From: a virus
Lineage: Duplodnaviria > Caudoviricetes
DNA: 55,993 bases
Virus record (IMG/VR): IMGVR_UViG_3300039106_000351
Location: 1 to 55,993 of that record
Strand: one strand, 5' to 3'
Shown here: one piece after another, positions 6,276-34,536 of the stretch
How positions within the stretch are numbered: the first letter of the stretch is position 1
How the letters are laid out: every line of letters starts with the position of its first letter
Translations under genes and position numbers: made by a program
Notes under the pieces: model-generated
What the model saw: only the letters and a program-made list of their open reading frames with translations
The model's database searches: none
What the model was told of the DNA's origin: nothing

Positions 6276-6280
6276 TTTAA

Positions 6281-9502: not shown

Positions 9503-9519
9503 TAAGTTTATTAAACTTA
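9503..9519. promoter_or_regulatory. 8-bp perfect inverted repeat TAAGTTTA-T-TAAACTTA, possible operator
   Basis: Palindrome in the short intergenic gap upstream of the 1062 aa gene. Confidence 0.3.
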
Positions 9520-9525
9520 TAAAGT

Positions 9526-13260: not shown

Positions 13261-13269
13261 AATATAAAT

Positions 13270-16200: not shown

Positions 16201-17676
16201 TTTAGTAAAATAAAATCTATTTTTAAATGTTATTTCTTGTGCTTTTTTTGGTGTTGCACCAAATGGTAATTGTTGATTAGGTCCAAATTTATTTTTAATC
16301 TCAAAGAAATTATTATCATTTTCATCTACTCCACTTATGATTTTAGAAGTCATAGGATATACACCACTAACTAAACCTTCTTCCATTGAAATAGGGTTTA
16401 TATCTGATAATGGAAAACTAGATTTACCTGACTCTATATTTTTAATTATATTATTTACATCATCTTGATATAAAACTAATTTATCAACACTTAAACTTCC
16501 ATCAAAAGCTGCTCTATCTCCACCAATAGTTGAGTTTTTACTAAATATTCCTTTTGTAGGTTCTAATCCATTTAGAACATTCCACAATTCATATCTGTTT
16601 TGTGTAAAAGGTGTTTCTAATTTAGGTCCAAATTTCTTTCCTATCCAAGGTAAATTAGATATACCTTGTCCAACCAATGAAGCAAGAGGTGCAGCTTTAC
16701 GTGCTCCTGATATATTTTGCATTGGATTATTTTGATTTATATAATCAAAACCATATTTTATTTTATGTTCTCCAGGTATATATGCATCATCTATAATGGG
16801 TTGTACAGGAATATTTTGCTGAATTGGCATATTAAAATTAGGTGCTACTTTAGATACCTTTTGCATAATTGATTCCATTCCTGGAAGAGCTTCTGCTTTA
16901 TTTAAAGAAGAAAGTAACCTTTGAAATTCAGATTCTGGTTTTAAAAATTTAGTAAGACCTTTTGCAGTTTTACCAATAATTTCTAAACCACCGTCAGCTC
17001 TTGGTAATTCATCTTCTTCAGATTCTGTTTTATAACTTCCAAAATAATTTTCTAAATCAGAAAAACTGTCTGTTCCTTCCATACCTGGTGTTACAGTCAT
17101 TAAGTCTTGAATAGAAAAAGGTTTTTGTTGTTCTCCACCATTACTATAAAATCCACCATATTTAGCTGAAAAAGCACCTTGTTGTTGTGATTGCTCAGTT
17201 TCTAAATGTGAATTGTCATCTCTATAAGAATCATCACCTTCATAACCTTCATTTGATAATGCAAGTTCTTCTTGTTCTGCATCACTTGATTCTCTTTCTG
17301 CAACTTCATTAGGATCTTCTGATTGGTCTACAGGTTGTCCATCTTCTGAAACTTCTGGATTTACTTTATCTAAAAGATCAGGATTTAAATATCCTTCTTC
17401 AGTAAGTTTAGTTATAGCAGCTTGAATAATATTTAAAGATGTAGTCTGATCTAAAGCATATTCTGTAATAAGTTTATTATAAACTAAATCAGGTAAGCCA
17501 CTATTTTTTATTGTTGAATAAGTATAGTCATATATTTTATTAAGTCTTGCCGGATCCATTACTGAGGAAGACATTTGCATACCATTACTAGCTTTTTTTA
17601 AAAACTTAGATGCATTAGTAATATAACCAGGAGTTTCTCCTGGAAGAGCTTTTCTAATTCTTACTGTTTTTTTCAT
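13270..17676 (-). CDS. Modular putative virion cargo protein (1468 aa)
   Basis: Long ORF with many [YFM]xxGG and AxxG linkers (KYGG, YSNGG, LPRADGG, FKKGG, FDEGG, FMYGG, YGGYLPQAANG, MANGG) and the terminal tag MTEEQIQQYLAAGGQIEYI. Confidence 0.65.
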   Translation of the reverse strand: MKKTVRIRKALPGETPGYITNASKFLKKASNGMQMSSSVMDPARLNKIYDYTYSTIKNSGLPDLVYNKLITEYALDQTTSLNIIQAAITKLTEEGYLNPDLLDKVNPEVSEDGQPVDQSEDPNEVAERESSDAEQEELALSNEGYEGDDSYRDDNSHLETEQSQQQGAFSAKYGGFYSNGGEQQKPFSIQDLMTVTPGMEGTDSFSDLENYFGSYKTESEEDELPRADGGLEIIGKTAKGLTKFLKPESEFQRLLSSLNKAEALPGMESIMQKVSKVAPNFNMPIQQNIPVQPIIDDAYIPGEHKIKYGFDYINQNNPMQNISGARKAAPLASLVGQGISNLPWIGKKFGPKLETPFTQNRYELWNVLNGLEPTKGIFSKNSTIGGDRAAFDGSLSVDKLVLYQDDVNNIIKNIESGKSSFPLSDINPISMEEGLVSGVYPMTSKIISGVDENDNNFFEIKNKFGPNQQLPFGATPKKAQEITFKNRFYFTKDAATGETKIFDTGGNPLKLGTQTKWTVKPPFGTRGTQFLQESLLRDSNTNFPNFNRGEGINVTGLPPTPRPDLSLRGQISRGLETYGTTGLNQFFRTNKSNIQAIDLPAFGYVNTLGGQGLVNPVDIPFAKTAADIKNAKNYKFRLGLKGSLLGTGLGYAGYQTYDAIANPCQCVDPGQPNYMEPDLNNNCPCGTDIGAMGPSRQLEDVVRSNEGEIDPKILKGPDSMQYIEPGFSDKKRNYYRHNQNLSTDIPSDDFKKGGITKKKFITKLSLMFDEGGQTEDNKIGQGVRQDTLTNDISDLKSTFIKKLKNNSNKAISKEVYENAKYNPEIMNLIMQDGPKENLVGEEEVVQNPVGAFGGFIDMNAENPLTKFMYGGDEDKYYQPYGLYEARNGVEVKNKSGRTSMISDKQAYQEWLDDQTNPDNWPGATAGNNPGDNLITDQTEKDAYDSWKTEYMKATNEANRVGDFEKYLDFYNSNVSNIQNRDDIDRKTVKECPAGFVYNAEYGDCVPLASIKYNTQITANNPGLWDTILPWNPILRSRGSYGKQTKNPYYINSGNPYTGQLPKDAVARYVTKTGMFGRPKKYLDIYDVSSFGSGAGASLNLESLKELENNLGRSRNRTSNTGIQPNGTKYVEGMKIGRNQMYQTKLDPNGIPMGIDRKGRLRSAETSIPVIENSNVGAPLPLSFFPPGDPRGAYLKSQLTLPEQPAIPQPMPEGYPINNVGPINTEMAYGGYLPQAANGEEIQFPFLASSSVSQDGNPINTPTSYTGFGSPGYDYLGESIKKTNSEFENQGGIGEGGTGPCNEDEVLDPNSPCYDPNYKADEKKYVGVENKVQNMKTFDPEAMLNVGNTGIRAGIGVLNNFERKNQQKELYDNNWGATQVSGDTARINKGKWNPNSGNSYEGTTGNDTLGMGPMAKYGRYMANGGYAEPYNYYTDGYLPQQEQLNDDEAYMTEEQIQQYLAAGGQIEYI

Positions 17677-17692
17677 AATACTTATCTATATA

Positions 17693-17704
17693 TAATATAC
17701 TAAA
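17693..17704 (-). promoter_or_regulatory. Putative phage promoter motif TTTAGTATATTA
   Basis: Copy of an intergenic motif found at four sites plus variants; 16 nt upstream of the ATG at 17676. Confidence 0.6.
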
Positions 17705-17733
17705 TTTTAATTTAACAAATAAACATTAAAAGT

Positions 17734-20700
17734 TTATTCTTCTTCAATGATATAACCTCCTTTAACATATTCCTCTATTTCTTTTTGAGATAGTTTTGTT
17801 ACTACTCCACCATTTTTATTTTTATATCCAGATTGTTTACTTATTTGTTTCCAAGCATCTTGTACTGTAAGTGGTTTACTAATGTCACTTTCCCATTTTT
17901 CAAGATCCTGTTTACCCATTTTTATAACTATCTGTCTTCTCCATTTTTCAAGTTGTTCTGGTGATGCATTTAAAACTTCTTCTAAACTTAAACCAAGTTT
18001 ACCTCTCATTTCACTAACAACAATTTTAGCAGGACCTGTTTGTAAAAAATCATTTCCTTTCTGATTTTTTAATAATTGTTGATATGTTTTAGGTAAAGTT
18101 TCAAAACCAGTATTTATTGTTTTTAATGATTCTACCTTAAGCTTACCTTTGTTTGATAAGTTATTTCCCCATGCATAGTTTTTTTGTAACCAAGCTTCCT
18201 GTTCAGGTTGGAGAATCTTACTCCTAAAATTTGGTAATCCTACATTGGGAAATAAATTAGAAAATAATTCATCTCTAGAAGTATCTCCTCTTACATTATT
18301 ATAACCTTTAAATTTTAAAAATGCATCAAGTGCAGCATTATTAGGATCATCAGGATACATTTTATTAAAGTTTTGCCATGCTGTTTGCCATTGATTTTGT
18401 TGAGTAATAAGTTTTTTTAATTCAGAGTTAGTAAAAAAATCTTCTTTTCCAGGTACCCATTGTGGTCCAGATGGTTCAATACCAAATGATGCTAAATTTG
18501 AAAGATCATTTCTTACTTCCCAACCATCTGACCCAGCAGCAAAATTAAAATCACCTACTCCTTCAAATGTATCTTTACCATATGGAGGTTTATTTGATAA
18601 ATATTTATCTAAAGAATTATTAGCATCTATGTTAGCTTCATTTTTCCAATCTTTTATTCCTGGATAATCTAAAGGATCTGCATGATAAAAAGATTCACCT
18701 TGAAAAGGTTCATCACCATATTGTATTAATGAATTTCCTCCTGTTGTATTAGAAAGATTTTTTAAATCAACCATAGGAACTTCACTTACACCTTTAAAAT
18801 AATCTAGAGCAGGAAGAAGTTGATTAACTTTTAAATTCATTCCTTTATCTAAATTTCTAATTGGAATTTTTGAAACAGAATTAGGAATATTTAATCCTTT
18901 TATACTTCTTACTATTCTTCCTATATTAGCTTTAGGTAATGATCCACCTTTTTTATATTGACCTCTCCATCCAGTATTAAAATTATTAATTATGGAATTT
19001 TTATTATTTTCCATATCTAAACGATCTTGAGCAGACATGTTTTTAAGATCAGTAAACTTAAATGTAGGATCAATTGTTCCTATTTTATTCCCTGTACCAC
19101 TAAGCCAATGTCTTGTATTTAATCCAGTTGCATTTGATAAACCTATAGTCTTATTAAATGAATCACGTGCTGATTGACCTACAGTACCTTTTGATTGACC
19201 TGAATTAAAATATATTTCTTCAGGTAATAAAGATTTATTTAAATATCCAGATTCATATAAAGGTTTTTTATTTACAATATATTTTTGATACCAATCTTGC
19301 CAATTTCCAGTACTAAAATCAGTAGGTAATTGAACTTTAAATTGATATGGTCCATAAGATTGTTTTTCAGGTAAAGAAGCTAAATACATTCCATCCATTC
19401 CATACATATCAGGTAAACCAGCTCTATATCCATATTGTTCCATAGGTATATGAGTAGCTTGATATGCAGCAAGAGATAATGGATCTGCTCTATTTACATT
19501 AGCTAAATCCATATTCTCAACTTCACTTCTAGGATTATCATATCTTCTTCTATACATATCAAATGTTCTATGACCATAGCCATCTAAACTTACACCTCTT
19601 GGATTAAAATCTCCTTTAACTTGCCTATAACCTGTTCTATCATGATCAATTGCTAATTGCATAATTTTATTCATGCTATCATTAGTTCTTGCCATTTTAA
19701 ATAAATCTTCAGCCCCAACATCATTTCCAACATAACCTAAATTTTTTAATGCATCAGCTGCATTACGTCTATTTGCAAATTCTAAAGTACTTCTATCAAA
19801 GTTTGAAAGATCACCTATATTATAATCTGATGCTGGTTGATTATATATATCACCTAAAACATCATATGGATTATCTGTTTTACTTAATATATCAGTTAAT
19901 AAATATTGTGAATCCAAATTACTTATAGGATTAATCATATCTAATATAGGCTGTATATTTGGATTTTTATAAACACTATTAGCTATATTTTGATATATAG
20001 CAGGCATTAATATATTTTTAGTAGGTGTCTTAAATTCATTTATTAATTTTCCAGTATTTTTTAAAATTTCTAAACCATTCCAAGCTTTAGGAAGTGAACC
20101 TCCTTTTTTATATCCAAGTAGTTTAGGATTAAATTGTATATCAGAGTTTGAATTAGATTTAATTAAAGGATTAAACTGATATCCTTCAGGTGAAGGTCTT
20201 AATAATATTTCTTCTACTGTTAAAGGTTTAAATCTATTTTCTCCAAAATTAAATTTATAATTATTTTTTAAATTAAAAGCTGGTGATTCAACAATACCAA
20301 CTTTTCCAGAATCAATATTAATTGGATAAGTTCTATTAAAACCTGGAACCATAGTAGTTCTATTTGGTACTGATGTTAAATTTCCAAGATTTGCTGAAGC
20401 ATTAGATCCAACTTGATTAGAATATATACCAGCATCAGGATGAAATTGTTTATATAAAGTATTTATATTTTTCCTAGTATTAAGTCCTAACTCTGAAGCT
20501 AAGGCTTCATTACTAGTAGCATATGAAAGATTTGGTGCAGGTATATTTGCTTGTTTAAAACCATAATATTTACCACTAGGTGTTGTAACACCTAAGTTAA
20601 ATGCTTTAGTTGGAGTTTGTCCATATCTTAATAAATTTGTAGTTGCTCTAAGTGGAGACATAACACCCTGTATTCCCATTAAAGCATCCCATGCTGCAGT

Positions 20701-22734
20701 TCCATAATTTCCTTCTTGAAAATTAGTTCCTGCATTTGAAAAATTTTGAGGAGCTTGTAATGCAAAACCTGCATTAAATGCAGGATTACTAAAACCAGAT
20801 AGAAGAGCACCTACTCCTTTTCTAAAACCAGCACCCTTAGCAAGATTACCAAGTGCATTAGCACCTTTAATTGGTGCAACTGCCATTCCTGCATTTGATA
20901 AACTTTCTCCTAAAGAACTCCAAAAATGACCATTATCATAACCTTGTCTTACATCTGCACCTACTTTTATAGGATTTGCAGCATTAAACATATTATGAAA
21001 TACTCCTAGTGGAGAATCATAATTTATGGTTCCCATATCTACACCAGTCTCATCTTTAATTTTTTCTCTTTCTGTATAAGACATGTTACTATTACCCCAC
21101 ATTGTTTTACGAGGATTCATCCAAGCATCAAATGCAGGAATAGGATTGTATAAAACATCTTTAACTTTATCCCAAGGATGATCATTTATATTATATTGAT
21201 TTGTTCTACCTTCTGATATTGCATCATCATTTCTACCAAAATTATTACGTGACCATGCAAAATTTATATTACTTTTAATATCTTCATCATTAAAAAGATT
21301 GTTTAATGTTTCATTTTCTCCAGTTATTGTACTTTTTCCAATATCATCATTAAGGGATTTTAAAAATTCTATTTGTGTTTTTGGATCATTTTTTATAGCA
21401 TTTAATTTTTTTTCTACTCCAGATTTTAATATATCAGCACCAAAATTTTGTTTATACAATGTTAATGCATCTATAGCATCTTTATTTTTTGCTTCATATC
21501 CAACAGCAGTTCTTTTATCAATATCTTTTTTAAGATTCATTTGATTAAGACCTAATATATTTTGTTCTCTAACTTTAGCATTTGTATCTCCATACATAAG
21601 ATTACCAAAACTTTCTGTTTTATCTATAAGATTTTTATTTTTTTCTGCTTGAGCTTTGTCATATTCAGAAAGAGCATTGGTTTGATTATTAAATTGTTGA
21701 AATTGATAAGCAAAATCATTTGGATGATTAGCATCATTCCAAGATGCTACTGGATCATTTGATTTTCTAAATATATTTTCACCACTAGCAACTTGATCTT
21801 TATCTGTTGAAGGTATTGAATTAACTATATTTTGTTGTGTAGAATTAAAAAGATCAGTAATAATTTTTTCAGTAGATTTTTTAAAGTCCTTTGTTAAACC
21901 TGCTTGTCCTCCAAGTTTTGTAGGTAATTCACTAATAACTTGATCTACAGTTTTTCCTTCTTTTAAAGCTCGTGTTACTATTTTATTAGTCATGGTATTT
22001 GTAAATACCTCATGTGCAAGTTTCATTGTTGGTTCAAATTCAGAAGTAATTTGTTCTTTATCAAACCCCCATTTTTCAAAGTCACTAACTTTATATCCAT
22101 TATTCATTATCCTATTGTTCATTATTTCTCTAGGATATAATTCTATCTTTCCTGTTTTTTTATTTTTATTTATATAATAAGCATTTTTAATTTCTTTTTC
22201 TTTTTCAGGTGTAACATCAGATGGAGAAAGTATTAAAATAGGTTCTGGTTTTATAAATTTTGTCTTAAGATTTTTAGTATTTGCTTCTTTATATTTATCA
22301 TAATAATTTTTTACAGTACCTTGCCATGCAATATTTTGTTTTTTTATACGTTCAGTTTCTTCTTTTATATATTTATCCTCTGCCATTTTTTGTTTAGCTG
22401 CATCTTCAATAGCCCAACCTTCTTCAATTTTAGTAACTCTCAAACGATCTTGTCTATCCTGTTCTTGTAATTCTTGAGGTGTTACACAACCTCGGTCTAT
22501 GCCATCCATTCCTATACCACCATAAACTTTACCTGGAGGACATCCTTGTGTTGTTCCATAACCTTTAGTAGACTCAGTCATATATGGAGATTGCATTTGA
22601 TCCCAATATGAAGATGGTGCAATACCTTGAACTGGTACTGGCTCAGGTGTTACATTTTCTTTATTTAAAATAGTTAAACCTTTTTTAGCTTGTGGCAATG
22701 ATTGAGGTATACTAGTTATTCTATATTTTGCCAT
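17734..22734 (-). CDS. Modular putative virion cargo protein (1666 aa)
   Basis: Long ORF with N-terminal LPQAKKG, two internal YKKGGSLPKA linkers and the terminal tag LSQKEIEEYVKGGYIIEEE. Confidence 0.65.
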   Translation of the reverse strand: MAKYRITSIPQSLPQAKKGLTILNKENVTPEPVPVQGIAPSSYWDQMQSPYMTESTKGYGTTQGCPPGKVYGGIGMDGIDRGCVTPQELQEQDRQDRLRVTKIEEGWAIEDAAKQKMAEDKYIKEETERIKKQNIAWQGTVKNYYDKYKEANTKNLKTKFIKPEPILILSPSDVTPEKEKEIKNAYYINKNKKTGKIELYPREIMNNRIMNNGYKVSDFEKWGFDKEQITSEFEPTMKLAHEVFTNTMTNKIVTRALKEGKTVDQVISELPTKLGGQAGLTKDFKKSTEKIITDLFNSTQQNIVNSIPSTDKDQVASGENIFRKSNDPVASWNDANHPNDFAYQFQQFNNQTNALSEYDKAQAEKNKNLIDKTESFGNLMYGDTNAKVREQNILGLNQMNLKKDIDKRTAVGYEAKNKDAIDALTLYKQNFGADILKSGVEKKLNAIKNDPKTQIEFLKSLNDDIGKSTITGENETLNNLFNDEDIKSNINFAWSRNNFGRNDDAISEGRTNQYNINDHPWDKVKDVLYNPIPAFDAWMNPRKTMWGNSNMSYTEREKIKDETGVDMGTINYDSPLGVFHNMFNAANPIKVGADVRQGYDNGHFWSSLGESLSNAGMAVAPIKGANALGNLAKGAGFRKGVGALLSGFSNPAFNAGFALQAPQNFSNAGTNFQEGNYGTAAWDALMGIQGVMSPLRATTNLLRYGQTPTKAFNLGVTTPSGKYYGFKQANIPAPNLSYATSNEALASELGLNTRKNINTLYKQFHPDAGIYSNQVGSNASANLGNLTSVPNRTTMVPGFNRTYPINIDSGKVGIVESPAFNLKNNYKFNFGENRFKPLTVEEILLRPSPEGYQFNPLIKSNSNSDIQFNPKLLGYKKGGSLPKAWNGLEILKNTGKLINEFKTPTKNILMPAIYQNIANSVYKNPNIQPILDMINPISNLDSQYLLTDILSKTDNPYDVLGDIYNQPASDYNIGDLSNFDRSTLEFANRRNAADALKNLGYVGNDVGAEDLFKMARTNDSMNKIMQLAIDHDRTGYRQVKGDFNPRGVSLDGYGHRTFDMYRRRYDNPRSEVENMDLANVNRADPLSLAAYQATHIPMEQYGYRAGLPDMYGMDGMYLASLPEKQSYGPYQFKVQLPTDFSTGNWQDWYQKYIVNKKPLYESGYLNKSLLPEEIYFNSGQSKGTVGQSARDSFNKTIGLSNATGLNTRHWLSGTGNKIGTIDPTFKFTDLKNMSAQDRLDMENNKNSIINNFNTGWRGQYKKGGSLPKANIGRIVRSIKGLNIPNSVSKIPIRNLDKGMNLKVNQLLPALDYFKGVSEVPMVDLKNLSNTTGGNSLIQYGDEPFQGESFYHADPLDYPGIKDWKNEANIDANNSLDKYLSNKPPYGKDTFEGVGDFNFAAGSDGWEVRNDLSNLASFGIEPSGPQWVPGKEDFFTNSELKKLITQQNQWQTAWQNFNKMYPDDPNNAALDAFLKFKGYNNVRGDTSRDELFSNLFPNVGLPNFRSKILQPEQEAWLQKNYAWGNNLSNKGKLKVESLKTINTGFETLPKTYQQLLKNQKGNDFLQTGPAKIVVSEMRGKLGLSLEEVLNASPEQLEKWRRQIVIKMGKQDLEKWESDISKPLTVQDAWKQISKQSGYKNKNGGVVTKLSQKEIEEYVKGGYIIEEE

Positions 22735-22736: not shown

Positions 22737-25700
22737 TTAAATTGTTTCAAATGTATAACCTAAACTTTCTAAATATTTTTTAGTTTCTTCATCTACCTCA
22801 TCTCCTAGTTCATAATCAGTTTCTCCACCTTCATTATATTTTCTAGTAAGTCTATAATTAGGAATTTTAAAAGATCCAAGAGGATCCCAATAAGCTTTTT
22901 CACTAAAACCTTTTTTAAATATATCTTCATTTAATAAATTAACAGCTTTATCAATATCTGATTTTGGAGCTGTCCTAGCACTTAATATAAAATCACGACT
23001 ATTTATTCCAGGTATTATATCATCAAATAATTTACTATGTATTGACATAGTATTTAATGGAAGATAATTTTCATGATTTATATCCCAATCTTTTCTTTTT
23101 CCCATATTCAATAGCGCATTAAGGGAATCTAAACTTAAACTACTTGTTTCTAATATAGAAGGATTTGGTTTTGGAAAAACTTCATTCATTATTTTCATTG
23201 CTCTTCCAGATTCAAAAGGATTATACATTGAAGATGTAAAATGCCAATCATTATCATTGTTACTATAATTATTTTTAGCTACTTGCCAAAAACCACTATC
23301 ACCTTTTACTTGAAATGGAAAACTTACATTTTTTGGATCAAAATTAGTAGGAATATTTTTTAAGTTTATTTCATCAATAGGAGAATCTGCAAAATTAGAT
23401 TCTAATTCTGTATAGTCTGAGTATTCAGGACTTGTATATAAATCTTGATATGGAATTTGATATTGATTATTTTGTGGATTTAATTGTAATAATTCTGTAT
23501 AAGTAGGAGTTTCTCTAATTTGATTATTTAACATCTCAATCATTTGATCACTATGAGAAAGAGGACGAGTTTGATTATTCAATATATTTTGTTCAACCTC
23601 TAAAGCAGGAGGAAGTATTGTACTTGTTGCTCTAGCAGCATTTAATAATGTAGCATTTACTGGAGCAGTAACTTTACCTAACTTAGTTAACTTACTTAAA
23701 AAAGGTATACCTTTTTTAGCAACAACTTCTAGACCACCATCTGCTCTTGGTAAAGCTTTAGATACTTCTTCAACAATATAGCCATCTTTAATATACTTAT
23801 CTATTTCTTTTTGGGAAAGATTAGCATTTATATAATTTTGTTCTCCACCTTGTTTAAATATAAGAGGTTTATTACCAAATAAATGTTTACCTCTTTTATC
23901 TGTATATGAAGTAGGTATATTTATTTTTTCACATTTACATTTTTCACAAGGTCTTTCATAACCATCTGGGCAATCTGCTTTTCCTACACCTTGTCCATCA
24001 AAATTTAATTGAATATCATTATTAATTGTAGGTTTTTCATTAGTTTCTGTTTCAGTTTCAGTTTCTGTTTCTATTTCTTCATTATCATAATTGTTTCTTT
24101 CAGGCATTCTAGCACTTACTTTTCTTTTTGTTTCACCAAGTGGTATACTATATCTAACATTGCCATAAAAATTTGGAGTTAATGGTACACCCTCACGTTG
24201 TTTTCCACCCTCATAATTAAGTCTTGCTCCTGCAGTAGCAGAAAATATTCCTGGAATATTCTTAAATGGTTTTGCTTGAAATGTTAATTCCGGACTTAGA
24301 AAAGAAAGATCAAAAGGATCTCCTTTATCCATTTTATATTGATATGGTCTAGCTGTTTGAGTTCCATTTATAGCATCTTCTCCCATTAATCTTACTAGTT
24401 CATCTTCTTGTACTTTATTATAATCAGCACGTTGTTTTATTTGTGCATTAAATATATTTAATTTAGGTATAAAAGCCATGTCACCTTGTCTAGTTAAACC
24501 TTGACTATAATATCTATTAGGTGTTATTTTTTGACCATGTTTTCTTCTACCAAAAACACCCAACATACTTGCATCTATATTACCATATAATCCTGATTCA
24601 GGTGCATATCCTGCATGAGTACTAAATGCTCCTGTAAAAGGACCATTTGAAGAACTTCCAAAAGCATTACCAACTAAATCATAACCAATATCTGCTGTAA
24701 AAGGTAATCCTTTTTTATATAAAGGTTTTAAATTAGCTAAGTTTTGTGCAGCTTGATAACTATTAAAAGTTGCTGCATTATTTCCACCAGCTGTTGCATT
24801 TTGCCAAAAGTTTTGATATGCAGGATTATTTTGATTACCTGCATCATTATAATCCCAAGAAGTATTAGTACTTAAATCTAATGTAGGATTTGTTAAATCA
24901 GCAGCACTTGTATTATATGGTCTTCCTAATGTAAATGATAATGCATTACTAGCTGCATCCATTTTCTTAAATAACTTTGGATTTGTATAAGTTAGACTGT
25001 AATTTGGATTTCTATTATAATTACCTATTTGTCCATAGTTAGATCTAAAATCAAATGGTGTAGCTGTTATAGAACTTTTATCTCCAAGACCTATTGCATA
25101 TCCACCTTCAGCTTTAGGTAAAGAACCTCCATCTTCATAGTACTTTGCATTAGGATCATAGATTTTATTCTTTCTAGATTTAGCTTTTGCAAAGAATGGA
25201 TGTACTGCAAATAACTTATTAGTTGCTTCTAAACTTCTAGAATATGCTTTTTCATTTCTACGATTTGGTAATCTAGATCTACTACTTCCTCCATTTTTAA
25301 AATCATTTCCAAAATCTTTTGGTTTTTCTAATGTTGGATCATCTATAGAAGTATAGTCTGATGTTATTTCTTCTCCTACTTGTATATCTTTAATAGCTTT
25401 TAAATATCTTTTATTACCTTCAACTATTGATTCAGTATTAGTATCTTCAGAATGATTATGATAAGCTCCTAAAATTGGTGTTGCATTACTTGTTATATAT
25501 TCATTTCCATTTTTTGAATAAGATGATTTAACATGTGATAAGCCAATAATTTCTCCAGCTCTTATAGGTTCTTCAGCAAACAAACCTTTACCATGTATAT
25601 TAGATTTTTTTACATTAACTTCTTTTTCAGGATAATCTCCAATAGCAGGAGCATTATGTTCTGATCTACCTAGTACTTCATAATCTTGTGTATCTCCACC

Positions 25701-27344
25701 TTCTGTAAATTTATTTAGTCCACCACCATATTTAAAATCACCATAAAGTTTTACATACTCTTCACGATTCATTCCATATTCATTTAAAAGATCTTCATTC
25801 TGTTTTCTAATTAGTTTATTTTCTTCTTCACTATTTGCCCACTTTTTATTATATTTTTTTTGCTGTTTTTTATCTCTTAAAGAACTTGCTCCTTTAAAAT
25901 TTATTTGTCTACCTTCTTGTTCTGCTTTTTCAATTTCACCTGGAATATAATTACCTTCATCATCTTCATAACCCTCCATAAATTTTCTATCATATCCTGT
26001 AGCTTTTTGAACCATTTTAGGAATAAATCTAGTTACTTCTCTTTCTCCAATATCAATATTTCCTCTTGTTCTTGGTATACCTTTATCAAATAATCTTTTA
26101 ATTGGATTAATTGGTAATTTAACACCAAATGTAGGAACATCCATATAAGTATCTGTAGGAGAATAACTAGGTCTATCAACACCTTGTTCAAATTCTAATT
26201 TTGGATACATTGATTCTATAGAAGGATCTGCATATTCATATTCTAAAGGTGTTTCTGATTCCCAATCAAATTCTTTAGGGGGCAAAAGATTATTATAAAG
26301 ATTTGTATTTTCATATAAATAATCATTACCAACTTTATATCTTTGTCCATGTCCATATGAACAATCTTTACAAAGATATTTATAGTTTTCTTTAACTGTA
26401 CCAGGTCTTCCTTTATAGAAGTCTTCATAAGAAACATCTTTTGGAACATAACCTAAATATTCTGGATCATTATAAAATTCTTGAGCACGTTTTTCTTCAG
26501 CTCTTACTTTTTTTGGATCCCATCCTTCTTTATATATATCTGAAGGAATGTAAGTATTTCCATCTGCATCTACTATAGGTTCTGCAGATGTATAATAATC
26601 AGAAGAAACTTTAGGTAACATAACAGGTATACTATCAGATTCTTGAATATTAAATCCTGCATCTGTTAATTTTTGAATATTCTGTTTTTCTAAATTTTTT
26701 AATTTTTCCCACTCTTTATATTTTCTAGCTTGATGAGTATTTTCAGAATTTACATAATAAATATTTTCAGTTTTATTAAAACCTTCTGGTTTAGATGGAT
26801 CAATAACTACTTTATAATTTAAATCTGGATATCTTCTTATGGTAGCTAAATCTTTTAAATCATCATTATACGTATTTTTATAATTTGGATGTGTAACAGT
26901 TAATTGTGTTTGTGCTTCTGGAAAATATACTGGATTTTGTATTTGTTCTATATTTAAATCTTCAGGCCAATCATTTTTATATTTTGAAGTTAATTGATCT
27001 GGTGTAGCTGTAGTAAAGTCATTTGTTCCTCTAGGTTTAACTTTTACAGTAGTCTTTCCTTCTTTCTGATAATTAGAAATACATCTTCCTGATTTTGGAT
27101 CAAATGTAAAGTCATCTGGACAACCTGATGTTTTTTCACATCTTTTAGTTTCTGAATTCCATTTATAATCTTTAGGACATGTAGGATTACCTCCACCATC
27201 TAAAAACTTAAGTAGTCCACCTCTTTTCATAGTTGGCATACCCATTTGATTAAATGGATTAACAATAATATCTTTTTTAACTGCAGGTGCTTTTACACTA
27301 TCTAGTTTTTTAAGAGCATCAATAAGAACTTTTTTATTATACAT
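22737..27344 (-). CDS. Modular putative virion cargo protein (1535 aa) containing a SET domain
   Basis: Long ORF immediately after the muzzle gene (TAATG overlap). Linkers MKRGG/FLDGGG, FKYGG/FTEGG, FKNGG, YEDGGSLPKAEGG, FKQGG, LPRADGG and YNEGG; SET motifs present. Confidence 0.7.
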   Translation of the reverse strand: MYNKKVLIDALKKLDSVKAPAVKKDIIVNPFNQMGMPTMKRGGLLKFLDGGGNPTCPKDYKWNSETKRCEKTSGCPDDFTFDPKSGRCISNYQKEGKTTVKVKPRGTNDFTTATPDQLTSKYKNDWPEDLNIEQIQNPVYFPEAQTQLTVTHPNYKNTYNDDLKDLATIRRYPDLNYKVVIDPSKPEGFNKTENIYYVNSENTHQARKYKEWEKLKNLEKQNIQKLTDAGFNIQESDSIPVMLPKVSSDYYTSAEPIVDADGNTYIPSDIYKEGWDPKKVRAEEKRAQEFYNDPEYLGYVPKDVSYEDFYKGRPGTVKENYKYLCKDCSYGHGQRYKVGNDYLYENTNLYNNLLPPKEFDWESETPLEYEYADPSIESMYPKLEFEQGVDRPSYSPTDTYMDVPTFGVKLPINPIKRLFDKGIPRTRGNIDIGEREVTRFIPKMVQKATGYDRKFMEGYEDDEGNYIPGEIEKAEQEGRQINFKGASSLRDKKQQKKYNKKWANSEEENKLIRKQNEDLLNEYGMNREEYVKLYGDFKYGGGLNKFTEGGDTQDYEVLGRSEHNAPAIGDYPEKEVNVKKSNIHGKGLFAEEPIRAGEIIGLSHVKSSYSKNGNEYITSNATPILGAYHNHSEDTNTESIVEGNKRYLKAIKDIQVGEEITSDYTSIDDPTLEKPKDFGNDFKNGGSSRSRLPNRRNEKAYSRSLEATNKLFAVHPFFAKAKSRKNKIYDPNAKYYEDGGSLPKAEGGYAIGLGDKSSITATPFDFRSNYGQIGNYNRNPNYSLTYTNPKLFKKMDAASNALSFTLGRPYNTSAADLTNPTLDLSTNTSWDYNDAGNQNNPAYQNFWQNATAGGNNAATFNSYQAAQNLANLKPLYKKGLPFTADIGYDLVGNAFGSSSNGPFTGAFSTHAGYAPESGLYGNIDASMLGVFGRRKHGQKITPNRYYSQGLTRQGDMAFIPKLNIFNAQIKQRADYNKVQEDELVRLMGEDAINGTQTARPYQYKMDKGDPFDLSFLSPELTFQAKPFKNIPGIFSATAGARLNYEGGKQREGVPLTPNFYGNVRYSIPLGETKRKVSARMPERNNYDNEEIETETETETETNEKPTINNDIQLNFDGQGVGKADCPDGYERPCEKCKCEKINIPTSYTDKRGKHLFGNKPLIFKQGGEQNYINANLSQKEIDKYIKDGYIVEEVSKALPRADGGLEVVAKKGIPFLSKLTKLGKVTAPVNATLLNAARATSTILPPALEVEQNILNNQTRPLSHSDQMIEMLNNQIRETPTYTELLQLNPQNNQYQIPYQDLYTSPEYSDYTELESNFADSPIDEINLKNIPTNFDPKNVSFPFQVKGDSGFWQVAKNNYSNNDNDWHFTSSMYNPFESGRAMKIMNEVFPKPNPSILETSSLSLDSLNALLNMGKRKDWDINHENYLPLNTMSIHSKLFDDIIPGINSRDFILSARTAPKSDIDKAVNLLNEDIFKKGFSEKAYWDPLGSFKIPNYRLTRKYNEGGETDYELGDEVDEETKKYLESLGYTFETI
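25345..25625 (-). other. SET-domain lysine methyltransferase module
   Basis: VKKSNIHGKGLFAEEPIRAGEII (GxG motif I), YHNHS..N (NHS motif) and AIKDIQVGEEITSDY (pseudoknot motif with catalytic Tyr), all in canonical order. Confidence 0.88.
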
Positions 27345-30300
27345 TATCTTGGAGAAAATTGATTTTTACTATTTGTAATTTTTAATAACATATTTGTATT
27401 CCCTGACACATCTTTAATAAAATTAATAAAATTTGTGTAATGTCTAAACTTTTTTCTTTGTAATTCTGGTTTTGCATAATTAAGATTTAATGGATTTAAA
27501 ACTCTAATATATCCATTAGGTTCTGTTTCCCAAATAACTTCTTGATTATAGTTTCCATTTAAAATAGTTGTACCTGGAATAAGAGGTCCTGTTGGGGGAT
27601 AATCTGATCCTATTGGGAACTCTCCTCTATTCTTAGTAATATCCCAGAATTGATTAATTCTATATTTATTTTCTTCTTTAGAAAATAAAACATCAAATGA
27701 ATTATTATTTGGATTAAGTTTAGGATAAGATAAACTTAAAGTAACATTATTCTTAGGAAATAAATTAAGATTTAAATAACCTGAAACTTGTTCTGAATTA
27801 TATATAACTGCTCTATCAAAATTAAAATCTAAAACATGAAATTGATCATAACAATTTTCTCTATGTCTATTGCATTCTAAAATATATTCTAATGATTTAA
27901 TTGTTGTTATACTTTGTCCTGAATTAACAGGTAGTTCAACTTCAAAAGGATAATCTTTATCATAGAAATTACAAAACTTCTGACAATTTAAATTATGTTT
28001 CCAAAAAGTATTTAATTTAGAAGTTAAAAATGTATCCTTAGTTGCTATAACTAAATCAGGATGCCAGTCATGAAAAGAAATAAAGAATTGATTTTTAGGG
28101 TCAAAACTTATTGTCCATGATGCAGCTGAAAATAATAATTCATCTCCTAATAAAAAGACAGAACCTGGATAATCTATATGTGTAAAATAATCACCTTGAC
28201 CTTTTTGTTTTCCAAAAGTAATTAATGGTACATAGGATACCTTACCTTTATATTCTGGTTTTAATTCATAATCTTTTTTAGAAAAATATAATATTGAATT
28301 TTGGTTATCATAAGTTGCTTGACATCCAATTCCTGAAACAGGATTATCTTTCCAAGGATAATCAGGAAAATCATCTGTAAGTTTATATGGTAAAAAATTA
28401 TTAAACCACCACTTCATTCCTATTTGTGATATTTCTTTTAATCCATCACCATAAGAAAATATTTTACCTTGATTTTGTGAAATATAAAAAATTCCTGCAG
28501 GAGTACTAATTACTGCTAGTTTACTTTGTGAAGAACCATATTCATAAGATCTATCAGCATTAGATACAGATTGTTGAGGCTGTGAAAATAATCCACCATC
28601 ACCTATAGTAATCTTTGTATTTAAAGCTGTTTCTAAAACATCTACACCTTGATACATTAATGGACTATCATTTTTAAATGTGATTATAATACCACTTTTA
28701 TTAATAGACTTTACTGCAGATACTTGAGATTTAAAATCTTTATAATTATTTACTAAGTATATAAACCAACTATCTTTATAGGCAGCTTGTTGTTGAGGTA
28801 AAGAATATATAATTCTATCAGGTAAATAAGTATAACATAGTAATGATACAAAAGGATCATAATTTCTATTTTGTAAATTACCAGATGAAAAATATTGATT
28901 ATATAATTTTGTTATACTAAATGAATAATCATATCTCCACATATTACCTCTTGTAATAATATTAGGATCTGTAGTAAACATTGAATATAAGTCTGTATAC
29001 CTATAAGGATCATAATGTTTTTCATTTTCATAATCTCCAGAGATTCTAAAATCTACTAAAACTTCACTCTCTACAAAAAAGTCTCTTACACTTGAATTAG
29101 CTAAATAAAAATAAGATTCTTTTACTCTCCAAAAACCTGGGTAATTACTAACTGAATCATTACTAAAATCATATTCTTCATTATCCAGTTTATAAAAATC
29201 AGTAGGTAAATTACCAGAAACTGAAGTAGGTAAATTGGCTGACCAGTTAGAAAGGTTAGTTAAATTTTGTGCATCATATTTAACAGAATTAACCCAAAAT
29301 CTTGATCTTGGAATCATTGAGTATAAATAATAATTATAAGAAAATCCATCAGGAAATTTATATAACCAATTATAAAAAAACAACATTGTGTTCTTTTCAG
29401 TATATCTATTTATATATACGTCTCCTCCAAAAAATATATTTGTTATTCTTATTCCAGTTAGAACAGATTGTCCACCTGGACAAACAGTATTACTTAATGT
29501 TTGTAATGGATAATCAGAAATATTTTGTTCACATGGAGTAATTGGAATTTGTTTAATAGATTCTAATTGACCATATTGATTTCTTATTCTATATTTTAAT
29601 GCAGCATAGTGACTTGTAATTGGTAGACTAAATGATTGGTCAATATTATTCCAAGAAGGATTTTGATTATTTAATCCGTTAGTTGTTGTGTTAGAGTTAA
29701 TATTTGTATTTCCAGATAATCCAGATAATGTAATTAAAGACTTATCTTCAAAAGCACCCCCTATATAATAAGGACCAAGACTTGTTCCATTTGGATTTGC
29801 TAAATTATAGTAAGGACCTGATAAAGTTCTTATAACTACAGTATCAGATCTTTGTAAATTATTAATTGTATATCTAGTATATAAACCATTTGTATTTTGT
29901 TGATAGGCTGGCATTTGTTGTACAGTATCTCTAATATAAAAAGAGTCATCTATCTTAAATCTTTTAACTTCATTTATTGAAGTTTGATTCCAATTAGAAT
30001 ATAAACCATGTGCAATAGATTGTAGAGCATATTGTTCATATGGTACTAATGCAGTTACTGCTTCTATAGCAACATCAGCTCCTTGTGAAAAATAAAAAGA
30101 AAAAGCATTTATACCACCAATAGCTGCTAAGGCAGGAGGTAAATAAGCATAGTCTGGAAGTTCAATTAATCCTGTAATAGAAGTAGGATTAATTCCTGCA
30201 TTAGCAGCTGCTGTATTTAAAGCTGTTATTAAATTTTGTTCATAAAGTTCATATTGTGTTTGTAGTCCAATTAGTCCTAAAAATACATCTCCAACAGCAG

Positions 30301-32842
30301 TCCATGATGAATAATAAGTATCAACAAAACTATTAAATATTCCAACTGGACCTGTCAAAGCAGCTAAAGCTGCTACTTGTGTAGGGTCAGTAATTCCTAC
30401 TCCAGAAACATCATATATACGTTGTAAATTTTCTGTTACATCAGGAAGATTATAAGTTTTTTTACCTGTTAATGCTATTATAGCTTCAGCTATACCTGCT
30501 ATTAATGCTAAAAGTCCAATAACATCACTAAGTAATTTAAACTCAGAATGACTATCTGGATACTTAAAAAATTGATTTGAGTAACCAGCTAATTCTCCAT
30601 ATATTTTTAATTCAGTAGCTGACAAATATGGATAAGTAAACATTAGATCTGGTGAATGAATACTTGTTATATCAGTTGGAACAGTTTGAAATAATTTTGA
30701 TTTTATATAAGGATCTGAATATACTCCTCCAGGCATATTACCTGCTTGTACTGGTTTAATTGTATTAAAAGGATAGTTAGCATATAAGCCTTGTTTAATA
30801 GATGTACCAGCTAGACCAAAAGGATAATCAGGTAAAGCATAAGTTCTAAAATTATTTATCATTCCTTTTGCTAAGATAGTTCTACTACCTTCTCTTGATC
30901 CTCTTAAAATTTCATATCCAACTATGTTTGGAATTAATACACCATCATTATCTACAGGAAGTATAATATTTTCAAATGTTACTCCCATTATTCTAATGTT
31001 TAGTTCATTTGTATTAATACCTGGATTAGGTTTATAATGTAATCCAACAGGATTACCATTAGAATCTATTAAACTATTGTCAGGAAACTTATGATGTCTA
31101 ATTGGTTTACCACAAAGATCATTATTATAAACAGCCATACCATTTACCATAATAGGTAATCCTCCCGGACCAGTCCAACAATGAGCACTTGAATTCCAAA
31201 TTTCTGGTTTAGTATTAGGGTAATGTTCAGTTGACTCCCAATAACCCATTTCTCCACAAGCTATAACAACTCCACCATCATCAATAGTTGTATTTAATGA
31301 TGCAGGTATTGGAGATACAGTAGCTGTATTATAAATTTCAAATACTTGATCTGTATTATCTAAAGTATTTATATCATTAATACTAATAGATGTTTCAGCA
31401 ACAATTTGAATAGGACCTCCACTTGGTGGACTATATGCATAATTACCAGGAGGTCTTCCAGGAATATGATAGGATGCAGACTTGTCTCCTGTATCATATA
31501 CCCATCTTATAAAAAATGCATATACTTCATCTCTATAATAACTTCCTTTGTTTCCACCTTTTACATAATAGTCTGCTGGATATTCTACTGCTACCCATTT
31601 AGATCTAATTAAATTAGCTAAAGGTTGATAGTTAAAATCAAATTTTGATCTTGGACCTATTCTTAATAAATAATTATTTACATCAGTTATTTGATCTGAT
31701 GTTTCATACACTGGAGTTTTAAGAGGAAGTAATTCAAGAGGAACAGTTAATAAATCTTCTTTAATTCTATCTATTTCAATCTTAGTAGTTTTAGTAGAAT
31801 AGAAACCTATTTGTTTAGCAACAGTACCTTGATTAACATTTTGAACTATAACTAATATAAATTCTTCAAAATTTACACTATCTGCTGATAGTTCTATAGT
31901 AAGAGATCCTCTACTATCACTTGGATGCCAAACTTGTTGTATATTACTTGGTGAAAAATAATCAGTAACTCTTTGTCCTTTAATACTATATGCTATTGTA
32001 ACAAAATAAGTTCCATTTAGTAATGTTCCTCCTATAGGACCTAACTCTAATTTAATACAAGGAGTATTCATTAATTTTGATAATCTTATTTTTTCACAAT
32101 TAAGATCTTGAGTATCTGTACAAATTATACATGCATCAGGAGGAGGACAGTTTGGAAGGTTTGGCCAAACACCAGGTGTTGTTTGAATACATCCTCCACC
32201 CGCATCACATAACTGTGTCCATTTTACACCTGGCCATTGAACAGTATTTCCTGCTAAAGATGAATAAGTATTTTGAGTTGCTGTACCGTATGTTCCAAAT
32301 ATTGTAAATATATTTGGATCAGGCCAAGTTTGTGGGTCTCCTATATTAAGAAATCTATCTGGATTTAATCCATCAGCCCAATATACTTGCCAAGAACAAT
32401 CTTCTTTTTCTCTTGCTGATCCAGAAATTAAATATCTTTTATCAAAATATAGACAATTAGATTGAACAATTGGCATATAAATACACCTCTCTTCAATTAA
32501 TAAACCTATCTCAGATAAAATAGGAACTCCAATTTGATTATGACCAGCTGTAAAGATTATCCATTTATCACTAAATAGATTAATAGCACCTATAATATAT
32601 TTATATGCAACAGTAAACAATCCTGATGTAGGCATTGTTAAACCTGCTTCCATACATAAATAGTTAGCATCTTCATTAGATAAAGTTCCAACAGATCCTT
32701 CAACAGTATTATTTACTGCATTCCTAGCATGAGTCCATAATCCTTCTTCTACATAAGATGGATCTGAATCTTTATTAAGTCCTTTAGTAAAACTGTTAGT
32801 GAGTATTTGTGCACTATTTCCACCACCTTCTTGCTTTGCCAT
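27344..32842 (-). CDS. Tail stabilisation / muzzle protein (crAss-like, P22 gp10-like)
   Basis: 1832 aa. N-terminal FTKGLNKD..HARNA, YYRDEVYAFFIRW motif, FFGGDVYINRY, YGSSQS, WTISFD..FISFHDWHP. Follows the ring-protein genes as in crAss-like tail modules. Confidence 0.75.
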   Translation of the reverse strand: MAKQEGGGNSAQILTNSFTKGLNKDSDPSYVEEGLWTHARNAVNNTVEGSVGTLSNEDANYLCMEAGLTMPTSGLFTVAYKYIIGAINLFSDKWIIFTAGHNQIGVPILSEIGLLIEERCIYMPIVQSNCLYFDKRYLISGSAREKEDCSWQVYWADGLNPDRFLNIGDPQTWPDPNIFTIFGTYGTATQNTYSSLAGNTVQWPGVKWTQLCDAGGGCIQTTPGVWPNLPNCPPPDACIICTDTQDLNCEKIRLSKLMNTPCIKLELGPIGGTLLNGTYFVTIAYSIKGQRVTDYFSPSNIQQVWHPSDSRGSLTIELSADSVNFEEFILVIVQNVNQGTVAKQIGFYSTKTTKIEIDRIKEDLLTVPLELLPLKTPVYETSDQITDVNNYLLRIGPRSKFDFNYQPLANLIRSKWVAVEYPADYYVKGGNKGSYYRDEVYAFFIRWVYDTGDKSASYHIPGRPPGNYAYSPPSGGPIQIVAETSISINDINTLDNTDQVFEIYNTATVSPIPASLNTTIDDGGVVIACGEMGYWESTEHYPNTKPEIWNSSAHCWTGPGGLPIMVNGMAVYNNDLCGKPIRHHKFPDNSLIDSNGNPVGLHYKPNPGINTNELNIRIMGVTFENIILPVDNDGVLIPNIVGYEILRGSREGSRTILAKGMINNFRTYALPDYPFGLAGTSIKQGLYANYPFNTIKPVQAGNMPGGVYSDPYIKSKLFQTVPTDITSIHSPDLMFTYPYLSATELKIYGELAGYSNQFFKYPDSHSEFKLLSDVIGLLALIAGIAEAIIALTGKKTYNLPDVTENLQRIYDVSGVGITDPTQVAALAALTGPVGIFNSFVDTYYSSWTAVGDVFLGLIGLQTQYELYEQNLITALNTAAANAGINPTSITGLIELPDYAYLPPALAAIGGINAFSFYFSQGADVAIEAVTALVPYEQYALQSIAHGLYSNWNQTSINEVKRFKIDDSFYIRDTVQQMPAYQQNTNGLYTRYTINNLQRSDTVVIRTLSGPYYNLANPNGTSLGPYYIGGAFEDKSLITLSGLSGNTNINSNTTTNGLNNQNPSWNNIDQSFSLPITSHYAALKYRIRNQYGQLESIKQIPITPCEQNISDYPLQTLSNTVCPGGQSVLTGIRITNIFFGGDVYINRYTEKNTMLFFYNWLYKFPDGFSYNYYLYSMIPRSRFWVNSVKYDAQNLTNLSNWSANLPTSVSGNLPTDFYKLDNEEYDFSNDSVSNYPGFWRVKESYFYLANSSVRDFFVESEVLVDFRISGDYENEKHYDPYRYTDLYSMFTTDPNIITRGNMWRYDYSFSITKLYNQYFSSGNLQNRNYDPFVSLLCYTYLPDRIIYSLPQQQAAYKDSWFIYLVNNYKDFKSQVSAVKSINKSGIIITFKNDSPLMYQGVDVLETALNTKITIGDGGLFSQPQQSVSNADRSYEYGSSQSKLAVISTPAGIFYISQNQGKIFSYGDGLKEISQIGMKWWFNNFLPYKLTDDFPDYPWKDNPVSGIGCQATYDNQNSILYFSKKDYELKPEYKGKVSYVPLITFGKQKGQGDYFTHIDYPGSVFLLGDELLFSAASWTISFDPKNQFFISFHDWHPDLVIATKDTFLTSKLNTFWKHNLNCQKFCNFYDKDYPFEVELPVNSGQSITTIKSLEYILECNRHRENCYDQFHVLDFNFDRAVIYNSEQVSGYLNLNLFPKNNVTLSLSYPKLNPNNNSFDVLFSKEENKYRINQFWDITKNRGEFPIGSDYPPTGPLIPGTTILNGNYNQEVIWETEPNGYIRVLNPLNLNYAKPELQRKKFRHYTNFINFIKDVSGNTNMLLKITNSKNQFSPR

Positions 32843-33877: not shown

Positions 33878-34536
33878 TATCTAAGTGAATTTTGACCATC
33901 ATCAGAACCATCTGTTGGTATTGACATAGTCATTGTTAATTCTTTAATTACAAATTGTTCTACTTCAGAAAATAAATATGCTGGAAGTGATAATTGTTTA
34001 TTTTGAGCAATATCACATTCTTCAGTACAAGGATCTGTTACTCCTTCAAATATTGCTTCCATTCTTATTGCATCCCAATCTGTATTAGGACAATAAAGAT
34101 ATCCATTTAAAAACCAAAAATATTTTTTTGTATTGTATCTCCAAGTTGTTGTTCTTGTCATAGATACCCAAGTACCAGGATCTGTTCTAAACATTTCTAT
34201 AGTACCATCTATTGAAGATGTAGTACGTATAATAGGTCCCATTGCTCCATCTAAAATAGCTGGAAGTTTTTCTTTAGTTCTTTTAAAATAACATCCTGAA
34301 AAAACACCAAGACATCCTGCCTCTACTTTATCTACATCTATTAGTTCAATATATGGAAGTACTTGAAAGATAGAACTTATCTTCATTAACCTAAATTGAT
34401 TGTCTTCTCTTTTAAGTAATGTTTGACCATATTTAATTAAGGAAGAATATATAACTCTATCTGTTAAGAAAGGATCTTCTTTAACAGCTTTTAAAGTATT
34501 TCTAACTCTTGATATAGATTCTCCAATTGTTGTCAT
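33877..34536 (-). CDS. Tail tubular / ring protein
   Basis: 219 aa. MTTIGESISRVR..LTDR, YFWFLNGYLY, AIFE motifs; sits between the IHF-like gene and the next ring gene. Confidence 0.6.
   Translation of the reverse strand: MTTIGESISRVRNTLKAVKEDPFLTDRVIYSSLIKYGQTLLKREDNQFRLMKISSIFQVLPYIELIDVDKVEAGCLGVFSGCYFKRTKEKLPAILDGAMGPIIRTTSSIDGTIEMFRTDPGTWVSMTRTTTWRYNTKKYFWFLNGYLYCPNTDWDAIRMEAIFEGVTDPCTEECDIAQNKQLSLPAYLFSEVEQFVIKELTMTMSIPTDGSDDGQNSLR

Follow-up and report, generated by a model that had tools for sequence, protein, structure and literature searches.

The DNA examined here (hereafter the window) is the entire IMG/VR record IMGVR_UViG_3300039106_000351, 55,993 nucleotides of a virus of the Caudoviricetes, which is estimated to be 47% complete and in which all open reading frames (ORFs) are on the minus strand. 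One of them, P0001, encodes a giant protein directly after the muzzle gene of a crAss-like phage, and a SET domain, a module known to methylate protein lysines, is embedded in it. In eukaryotes, the methylation of protein lysines by SET enzymes is a defining feature of chromatin control; among viruses it has, to our knowledge, been established only for the chlorovirus protein vSET.

A first-pass annotation, made from the sequence alone, had placed an intact SET lysine methyltransferase at 25345..25625 without stating its strand. This interval does hold the SET module; it is to be read on the minus strand, where it corresponds to amino acids (aa) 574-667 of the intact 1535-aa ORF P0001 (22737-27344), the plus-strand translation of 25345-25625 being full of stops. 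The motifs GKGLFA, NHS and GEEITSDY that had been listed for the interval are all present (Table 1), the first of them being of the GxG type, which is the S-adenosylmethionine (SAM)-binding N-terminal motif of SET domains. The lack of post-SET cysteines also proved correct: Cys is absent from the SET module and from aa 665-760 of P0001, and the module, of ~105 aa, has neither a pre-SET nor a post-SET Cys-rich region. Across the SET-module family, an acidic P(E/D)LExP(E/D)DF segment stands where a post-SET region would be. The module is itself acidic, with an isoelectric point (pI) of 5.5, and is flanked, as had been noted, by linkers containing GG, two dipeptides upstream and one downstream.

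The Pfam profile PF00856 matches P0001 with an E value of 6.4e-8 and 33.4 bits, above the curated cut-off of 22.4, over positions 1-104 of its 105, and the raw DNA confirms this match. The same aa stretch is matched by phrog_28741, a 100-position profile of unknown function (E 1.3e-7). In a phmmer search of all PDB chains, the best match of the module is chlorovirus vSET (1n3j_A, E 2.7e-5, residues 6-115 of 119), and the alignment sets GEEITSDY of P0001 opposite GEEITISY of vSET. Tyr105 of vSET, the partner of Tyr664 of P0001, is its catalytic Tyr. A family profile built from alignment A1, which comprises 17 SET-family sequences including distant standalone forms, finds the SET domain of MLL1 (2e-14), vSET (2.4e-11) and EZH2 (4e-9) in the PDB; as MLL1 scores above vSET, these values show no specific sister relationship between vSET and the phage module.

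An AlphaFold2 (AF2) model generated from A1 has a mean predicted local distance difference test score (pLDDT) of 79.4 and a predicted template modelling score of 0.69, the pLDDT exceeding 85 in most of residues ~10-110 and the ends on either side being disordered. Foldseek gave 316 PDB matches at E<=1e-3, with SET enzymes in all rows among the matches listed, the top one being vSET (3kma_A, E 6.4e-7, TM score 0.68 normalised to the target). By VIA structure comparison, Z is at least 8 for 296 of 999 chains and reaches 10-12.8 for EZH2, MLL1, SETD8 and vSET; the match to EZH2 has a Z of 12.8 with a root mean square deviation (rmsd) of 3.1 over 109 aa, and that to vSET a Z of 10.2 with an rmsd of 3.1, 90 of 105 aa and 31% identity. 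By sequence and by predicted fold, aa ~574-684 of P0001 are an intact, minimal (~100 aa) vSET-like SET domain, as the first-pass annotation had claimed; a failure to predict a SET fold, which that annotation had named as a refutation, did not occur. A prediction of the SET homodimer scored 0.00 in a run made without controls, which speaks neither for nor against dimerisation.

The features expected of an active enzyme are kept in relatives. The 49 unique homologous modules retain G-KGLF, IG(L/V)(S/A)H, (Y/H)NHS(E/D) and G(E/T)E(I/L)..(D/N)Y; they also keep the acidic flank P(E/D)LExP(E/D)DF with a KKGG linker behind it. Alignment A1 shows no variation at the two glycines of GxG or at N and H of NHS, and hardly any at the Tyr of motif IV. 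When the 141-aa module was searched against 1.84 billion cluster representatives (50% identity), 740 were found at E<=1e-3, 155 at E<=1e-10 and seven at E<=1e-30; in 127 further representatives from the best 150 of the 740, the pattern NH[SNQDC] occurs in 123 and P[ED]LExP in 88. The ratio of nonsynonymous to synonymous substitution rates (dN/dS) of the SET module is 0.21 and 0.18 in the two locus pairs with unsaturated dS, dS being saturated and the ratio uninformative in more distant pairs. In comparison with the homologues P0034-P0052, the SET and basic modules are the best kept parts of P0001 (58-61% identity, the N-terminus having 38-39% and module D 44-48%). Judging from these substitution patterns, the SET module is under purifying selection, and motifs and model make SAM-dependent methylation of protein lysines its most likely activity. 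The acidity of the module and of its flank suggests a basic substrate.

What kind of phage carries this module? In the window, Pfam identifies Crass_capsid, CrAss_Ring_1, CrAss_Ring_2 and crAss_MUZ, and PHROGs identify the portal and the large terminase (TerL). TerL matches 138 INPHARED records, all with less than 60% identity and with 24-25% in the 15 best of the 138; the named matches are either crAss-like or come from phages of Bacteroides, Flavobacterium or Cellulophaga. Whole P0001 has no tblastn match to INPHARED phages at 1e-5. The window represents, by its sequence, a deep-branching crAss-like lineage without a cultured relative. Its genes run in the order ring 2, ring 1, muzzle, P0001 and then five giant ORFs, the ATG of P0001 and the muzzle stop codon sharing 1 nucleotide, and the last ORF of the window weakly resembles crAss001 gp47, an RNA polymerase (RNAP)-associated cargo protein (E 4e-5). 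In crAss001 the order is muzzle (gp44), cargo C1 (gp45), cargo C2 (gp46) and RNAP-associated cargo. P0001 is the positional counterpart of crAss001 C1 and is not filed as a gp45 homologue.

The synteny holds among relatives. A scan of IMG/VR with P0001 alone found no relatives, and one with an alignment of close homologues (A2) found 18 loci, of which one (L017) is cut by a contig end; in each of the 17 that extend upstream, the gene with the MYNKKVL leader is immediately preceded by a muzzle homologue (51-59% identity). This post-muzzle gene contains SET in eight of the 18 loci (L001-L005 and L008-L010). In the leader genes devoid of SET, where no SET match appears even at E<=10, the leader is followed by different modules. 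A search with the whole of P0001 found 102 proteins; a PF00856 match is precomputed in 50 of them, and a family hidden Markov model (HMM) finds the SET module in 62. A survey of orthologues, which the first-pass annotation had recommended, thus identifies SET, at the level of sequence, as an optional, swappable module. In a related record, G002 (L021-L025; 97,955 bases, ~82% complete), nine consecutive ORFs of 1062-3623 aa extend from the muzzle gene onward, forming a block at 33657-86813 that occupies ~53 of 98 kb and ends with an ORF carrying a LysM domain.

The partners of SET vary. The homologue P0092 has Amidase_2, its N-terminus being SET by the family HMM; P0100 has Phage_lysozyme2 and NlpC/P60, and P0081 and P0087 have His_Phos_1, so that SET is combined among homologues with amidase, lysozyme/NlpC-P60 or His_Phos_1 modules. 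Cell-wall hydrolase modules are typical of ejected virion proteins. In the 127 representatives mentioned above, 93 are at least 400 aa long, SET starts by residue 130 in 111, the C-terminal tail motif is found in 49 and the MYNKK leader in 26; a few SET relatives are standalone proteins of 98-135 aa (vSET has 119). The source name was 'hypothetical protein' for all six homologue clusters looked up. A scan of 185,579 species genomes gave only one 2-kb contig in a metagenome-assembled genome of the candidate phyla radiation, which is uninformative on the host, and the SET-module family looks strictly viral from its sequence distribution.

With the SET module alone, tblastn against INPHARED returned 10 weak matches (E 6e-6 to 0.07) in small ORFs, none of them crAss-like. 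These are small standalone SET-like ORFs annotated as hypothetical (GU071103.1, HQ634193.1, PV130723.1 and others), and they are carried by the cyanomyophages P-SSM7 and P-RSM6, Stenotrophomonas phage Yut2 and a 735-kb uncultured phage. One INPHARED record annotates its SET-like ORF by likeness to the vSET structure.

P0001 consists of at least seven independently shuffled modules, its termini being conserved and its interior shuffled, as seen by BLASTP against its 101 homologues, from which the module counts in Table 1 derive. In most relatives SET comes directly after the leader (residues ~40-170), whereas in P0001 module A sits between the two. The basic module follows SET in nearly all SET-bearing homologues and is found without SET too. 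Tails like that of P0001 also end the neighbouring ORFs at 17734-22734 and 13270-17676. From this pattern, the leader and the C-terminal tail are candidate packaging, docking or ejection signals.

Table 1. Genes of the P0001 region and modules, motifs and linkers of P0001 (positions are those of the window)
Feature	Position	Strand	Basis or occurrence
crAss tail ring proteins 1 and 2	32849..34536	-	Pfam
crAss muzzle gene	27344..32842	-	PF25731, E 9.5e-23
P0001, intact 1535-aa ORF, modular polyvalent-type putative cargo protein	22737..27344	-	
Five further giant ORFs (1666, 1468, 1244, 1062 and >2091 aa)	3..22734	-	linker motifs in common with P0001
N-terminal leader, aa 1-37 (MYNKKVL...)	27234..27344	-	53/101 homologues, 52 at very N-terminus
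Module A, aa 38-550, function unknown	25695..27233	-	31/101 homologues
Upstream linker FKYGGGLNKFTEGG, GG at aa 540 and 549	25695..25727	-	coincides with borders of BLASTP high-scoring segment pairs
SET module, aa 574-684		-	61/101 homologues
SET core (PF00856 envelope), aa 585-664	25353..25592	-	Pfam, phrog_28741, predicted SET fold
GxG motif GKGLFA, aa 585-590 (HGKGLFA, aa 584-590)	25575..25592	-	
SET motif III NHS, aa 630-632 (HNHSE, aa 629-633)	25449..25457	-	
SET motif IV GEEITSDY, aa 657-664	25353..25376	-	Y664 pairs with vSET Y105
SET C-flank DDPTLEKPKDF..., aa 668-684	25293..25343	-	family version is the conserved acidic P(E/D)LExP(E/D)DF
Downstream linker GG, aa 685-686, DFKNGG	25287..25292	-	DFKKGG in most homologues
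Basic module, aa 687-747, pI 10.2, Lys/Arg-rich	25104..25286	-	74/101 homologues
Module C, aa 748-1085	24090..25103	-	26/101 homologues
Module D, aa 1320-1507, function unknown	22824..23387	-	29/101 homologues
Acidic C-terminal tail, aa 1508-1535 (...LGYTFETI; ...GY.FE.I)	22740..22823	-	39/101 homologues, 36 at very C-terminus

Module C is rich in Gly, Asn and Tyr and is predicted to have ~12 long beta strands and two helical inserts. Its AF2 model has a mean pLDDT of only 55.7, Foldseek finds no match at E<=1e-3, the weak rows being a mixture of porins, autotransporters and unrelated folds, and its barrel-like neighbours in a feature atlas score 0.80, within the range of chance. The assignment as an outer-membrane-type beta-barrel was rejected on account of the low pLDDT and the lack of a significant structural match, and is kept as a lead only: from the predicted strands, module C might be a membrane-inserting barrel of an ejection channel. 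Two short Cys-rich mini-domains (CP.GY...C) are found at aa ~55-90 and ~1115-1140 (~27075-27180 and ~23920-24000); their counterparts in homologues weakly resemble CBM_14 (chitin-binding peritrophin-A), with no stretch passing alone. An acidic (ET)n repeat spacer, EEIETETETETETNE, at aa ~1090-1100 (~24050-24080), lies between module C and the second of these mini-domains.

The borders between modules are marked by GG, where 10 of the 12 GG dipeptides of P0001 are found. In the six cargo ORFs (3-27344), [FYWM]-x(1-3)-GG occurs 39 times against 17.6 +/- 4.3 in shuffled sequences, a count reached by none of 500 shuffles; in ten other structural proteins it is not enriched (18 against 12.6, reached by 64 of 500). 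The cargo ORFs also show some enrichment of [KR]-x(0-2)-GG (26 against 17.0 +/- 4.2, reached by 10 of 500). Some longer linkers recur: YKKGGSLPKA is present twice in ORF 17734-22734, with the variant EDGGSLPKA at aa 739 of P0001, and LPRADGGLE is shared by ORF 13270-17676 and P0001 (aa 1203). Possible roles of such recurring linkers are as processing sites, as joints of recombination or as hinges that give flexibility when the protein is threaded through the tail. The idea that GG junctions serve a Ulp1/C48-type protease was discarded, Peptidase_C48 being absent from five related records that are 70-89% complete. Record G002 has a gene for a DUF2201 metallopeptidase with VWA (95183-96367), which has no known link to GG sites. 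In 48 of the 102 homologues (P0003-P0100), one to four HExxH motifs occur in recurrent contexts; these modules have no Pfam match, and their feature neighbours, zincin-like peptidases and LPD23, are weak (scores 0.78-0.82) and serve as leads only.

The first-pass annotation had also pointed to Lys-rich KKGG and IHF-like proteins encoded nearby. A protein of the former kind is present: P0230 (44246-44674, minus strand; 142 aa) is Lys/Gly-rich, with repeated (K/L)-x-GG and KKGG-type motifs and one hydrophobic segment, and has no Pfam or PHROG match. An IHF-like neighbour finds no support, as ORF P0231 (42303-42755, minus strand) matches only DUF5856 and phrog_858, labelled 'starvation-inducible transcriptional regulator', and 34533-35114 is unlike crAss001 gp42.

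How might a SET domain in such a protein be used? P0001 is built as a beads-on-a-string polyvalent protein, in which the leader and the acidic tail bracket interchangeable modules on GG-containing linkers. In our preferred model, it would enter the virion as cargo, perhaps by means of its conserved termini, and at infection would be extruded unfolded through the tail, after which the small SET bead would refold in the host cytoplasm. There it would use host SAM and methylate lysines of a basic target early in infection, the target perhaps being a nucleoid, transcription or translation protein of the host, or a co-injected phage protein. Conserved termini around a shuffled interior fit packaging or ejection signals. 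With a probability of roughly 0.55, we consider SET-bearing P0001 to be virion cargo that is ejected at infection and delivers an active lysine methyltransferase to the host cytoplasm.

Several observations weigh against this model. SET is dispensable: it is missing from 40 of the 102 homologues and from the post-muzzle gene in 10 of the 18 loci (L006, L007 and L011-L018), and when identical loci are counted once, seven of the 14 distinct loci have it and seven do not. By BLASTP, P0001 has no similarity to the crAss001 cargo proteins gp45 and gp46 (best E 1.0 and 7.3), and no crAss cargo Pfam or PHROG matches it; a stretch resembling the N-proximal transmembrane helix of gp45 is absent as well, the maximum Kyte-Doolittle mean over 19 aa being 0.71. 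The cargo role is therefore argued from gene position and architecture, and of the earlier description of P0001 as a putative ejected protein, what stands is its place as a giant protein directly after the crAss muzzle, the C1 position, with the missing likeness to gp45 and gp46 on the other side. HExxH, found in nearly half of the homologues, is absent from P0001 and the other cargo ORFs of the window. In the module itself, the motif-II Tyr of MLL-type SETs is Leu in the profile alignment, and the C-flank, which is expected to close the lysine channel, has a pLDDT of 69 falling to 47 in the AF2 model.

As to the target, a tentative extension of the model is that the SET bead reaches the host before or together with the DNA and methylates a nucleoid-associated, RNA-polymerase or defence protein of the host, or the K-x-GG junctions of co-injected cargo, which would be shielded in this way from host proteolysis or ubiquitin-like tagging. 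If true, this would be a bacterial counterpart of the host shut-off by vSET, with protein-lysine methylation as a phage weapon, and the GG-delimited, shuffled beads would form a plug-and-play scaffold for effector delivery.

Another view, which we hold to be rather doubtful, is that the enzyme works in the cell producing the virions, methylating Lys-rich cargo or virion proteins of the phage itself before or during packaging, for the purpose of tuning their packing or unfolding or of shielding their lysines from host proteolysis or ubiquitin-like tagging. The gene is in a late structural operon and translationally coupled to the muzzle gene, as this view would have it, and candidate substrates are at hand: the adjacent basic module, which makes an acidic SET (pI 5.5) precede a basic stretch (pI 10.2) in most SET-bearing homologues, the K-x-GG linkers of the cargo ORFs, in which [KR]-x(0-2)-GG is somewhat enriched, and P0230 with its several KKGG-type motifs. 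However, the basic module is equally common without SET (74 versus 61 of 101 homologues, and the SET-less loci L011, L012, L014 and L017), and phages with similar cargo blocks manage without SET. Action in the producer cell and delivery to the next host are not mutually exclusive.

It is unlikely that P0001 is a structural or envelope-penetrating part, such as a tail tip or channel, which never reaches the cytoplasm and in which SET is a passenger or a structural or binding domain deprived of SAM and targets. Such a role would agree with the trans-envelope channel proposed for crAss001 C1 and C2 in passages of PMC10172136 and PMC10136315, with the long predicted beta strands and weak barrel-like neighbours of module C and with the periplasm-acting cell-wall hydrolases of the homologues; but strict conservation of SAM-binding and catalytic motifs under purifying selection is hard to explain without contact with SAM, and a beads-on-a-string design would let modules end in different compartments. 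Least probable of all is a catalytically dead, binding-only SET-like fold of the kind known from some eukaryotic proteins (inactive SET proteins appear in excerpts of PMC5094779 and PMC12886896): the missing motif-II Tyr and the poorly modelled C-flank would suit it, but active vSET also lacks that Tyr in the phmmer alignment, every motif shared with vSET is present, and the N and H of NHS, the GxG glycines and, nearly always, the motif-IV Tyr persist in distant relatives.

In the open-licence PubMed Central and bioRxiv full text, we found no phage cargo or polyvalent protein described as having a SET domain, and a report in a subscription journal could exist. The mention of a phage SET that was found is the annotation 'SET domain protein (ORF62)' of Stenotrophomonas phage Ps15, in a passage of PMC9025141; the 'set' encountered in passages of the crAss001 structure paper belongs to 'C2-set' immunoglobulin wording and is no SET domain. 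What appears new here, as read from sequence, is the setting of a familiar enzyme fold, both in its putative delivery and in the domain of its host: in a crAss-like lineage, the first giant protein after the muzzle commonly carries SET as an optional module, in a form even smaller than vSET. If delivered and active, it would point to an unstudied post-translational takeover or counter-defence in bacteria, give an enzymatic function to part of the large unannotated crAss-like cargo block, which makes up about half of the genome in the related record, and provide very small natural SET domains for enzymology.

Among known systems, the closest in architecture are the phage-type polyvalent proteins (Iyer et al., 2017; PMC5512222), described in passages of that paper as giant multidomain proteins of late or structural contexts in which unrelated effector domains are joined; the view taken there is that they are delivered along with the DNA and that zincin-like peptidase modules cleave them into units. 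The P0001 family likewise joins unrelated domains in a giant polypeptide in a late, structural context of a phage. HExxH motifs, whose likeness to zincin-like peptidases is a lead only, recur in 48 of the 102 homologues and are lacking in P0001 itself. The main text of PMC5512222 names no SET domain (all eight occurrences of 'set' are the ordinary word) and has no occurrence of 'crass'.

In position, the counterpart is crAss001 C1, a large protein encoded directly after the muzzle, as P0001 is. According to passages of PMC10172136 and PMC10136315, the crAss001 cargo proteins are carried in the capsid and tail and thought to be ejected partly unfolded, and for C1, passages of PMC10172136 propose storage in a partly unfolded state and ejection as the first of them. 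Five giant ORFs separate the muzzle gene from the gp47-like ORF in the present lineage; in crAss001 there are two. The passages of PMC10172136 on gp45 and gp46 report no enzymatic domain, whereas P0001 carries SET.

SET-fold lysine methyltransferases outside eukaryotes are known, as the phage module would be, from prokaryotes: Chlamydia cpnSET/NUE, Methanosarcina Go1-SET, Legionella RomA/LegAS4 and Bacillus BaSET. Passages of PMC3980110 report that cpnSET methylates the bacterial histone-like protein Hc1 and that Go1-SET methylates the archaeal chromatin protein MC1-alpha, which is a precedent for nucleoid proteins as targets, and some prokaryotic SETs reach another cell through a secretion system, as passages of PMC3980110 and PMC10117894 state. 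These are, however, cellular genes, mostly for free-standing enzymes, and their known delivery is by type III or IV secretion into eukaryotic cells, not through a phage tail; the words 'phage' and 'virus' are absent from the 2014 review of bacterial SETs, PMC3980110.

In the enzyme itself, the counterpart is vSET (A612L of PBCV-1), also virus-encoded and a minimal SET without pre- and post-SET Cys regions, which has GxG, NHS and GEEIT-x-x-Y in common with the phage module. Passages of PMC7019647 describe vSET as packaged in the PBCV-1 virion and implicated in host shut-off, and the title of reference 163 there calls it 'dimeric'. vSET stands alone as a protein of 119 aa, belongs to a eukaryotic virus and acts on histone H3 (H3K27), whereas the phage module is one bead in 1535 aa, bears an acidic C-flank, P(E/D)LExP(E/D)DF, that is the phage family's own, and would meet a host that is presumably a bacterium without histones. 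Packaging in the virion is established for vSET, and for P0001 it is suggested by gene position. Phages may thus modify the proteins of bacteria in a way similar to that in which an algal virus marks histones.

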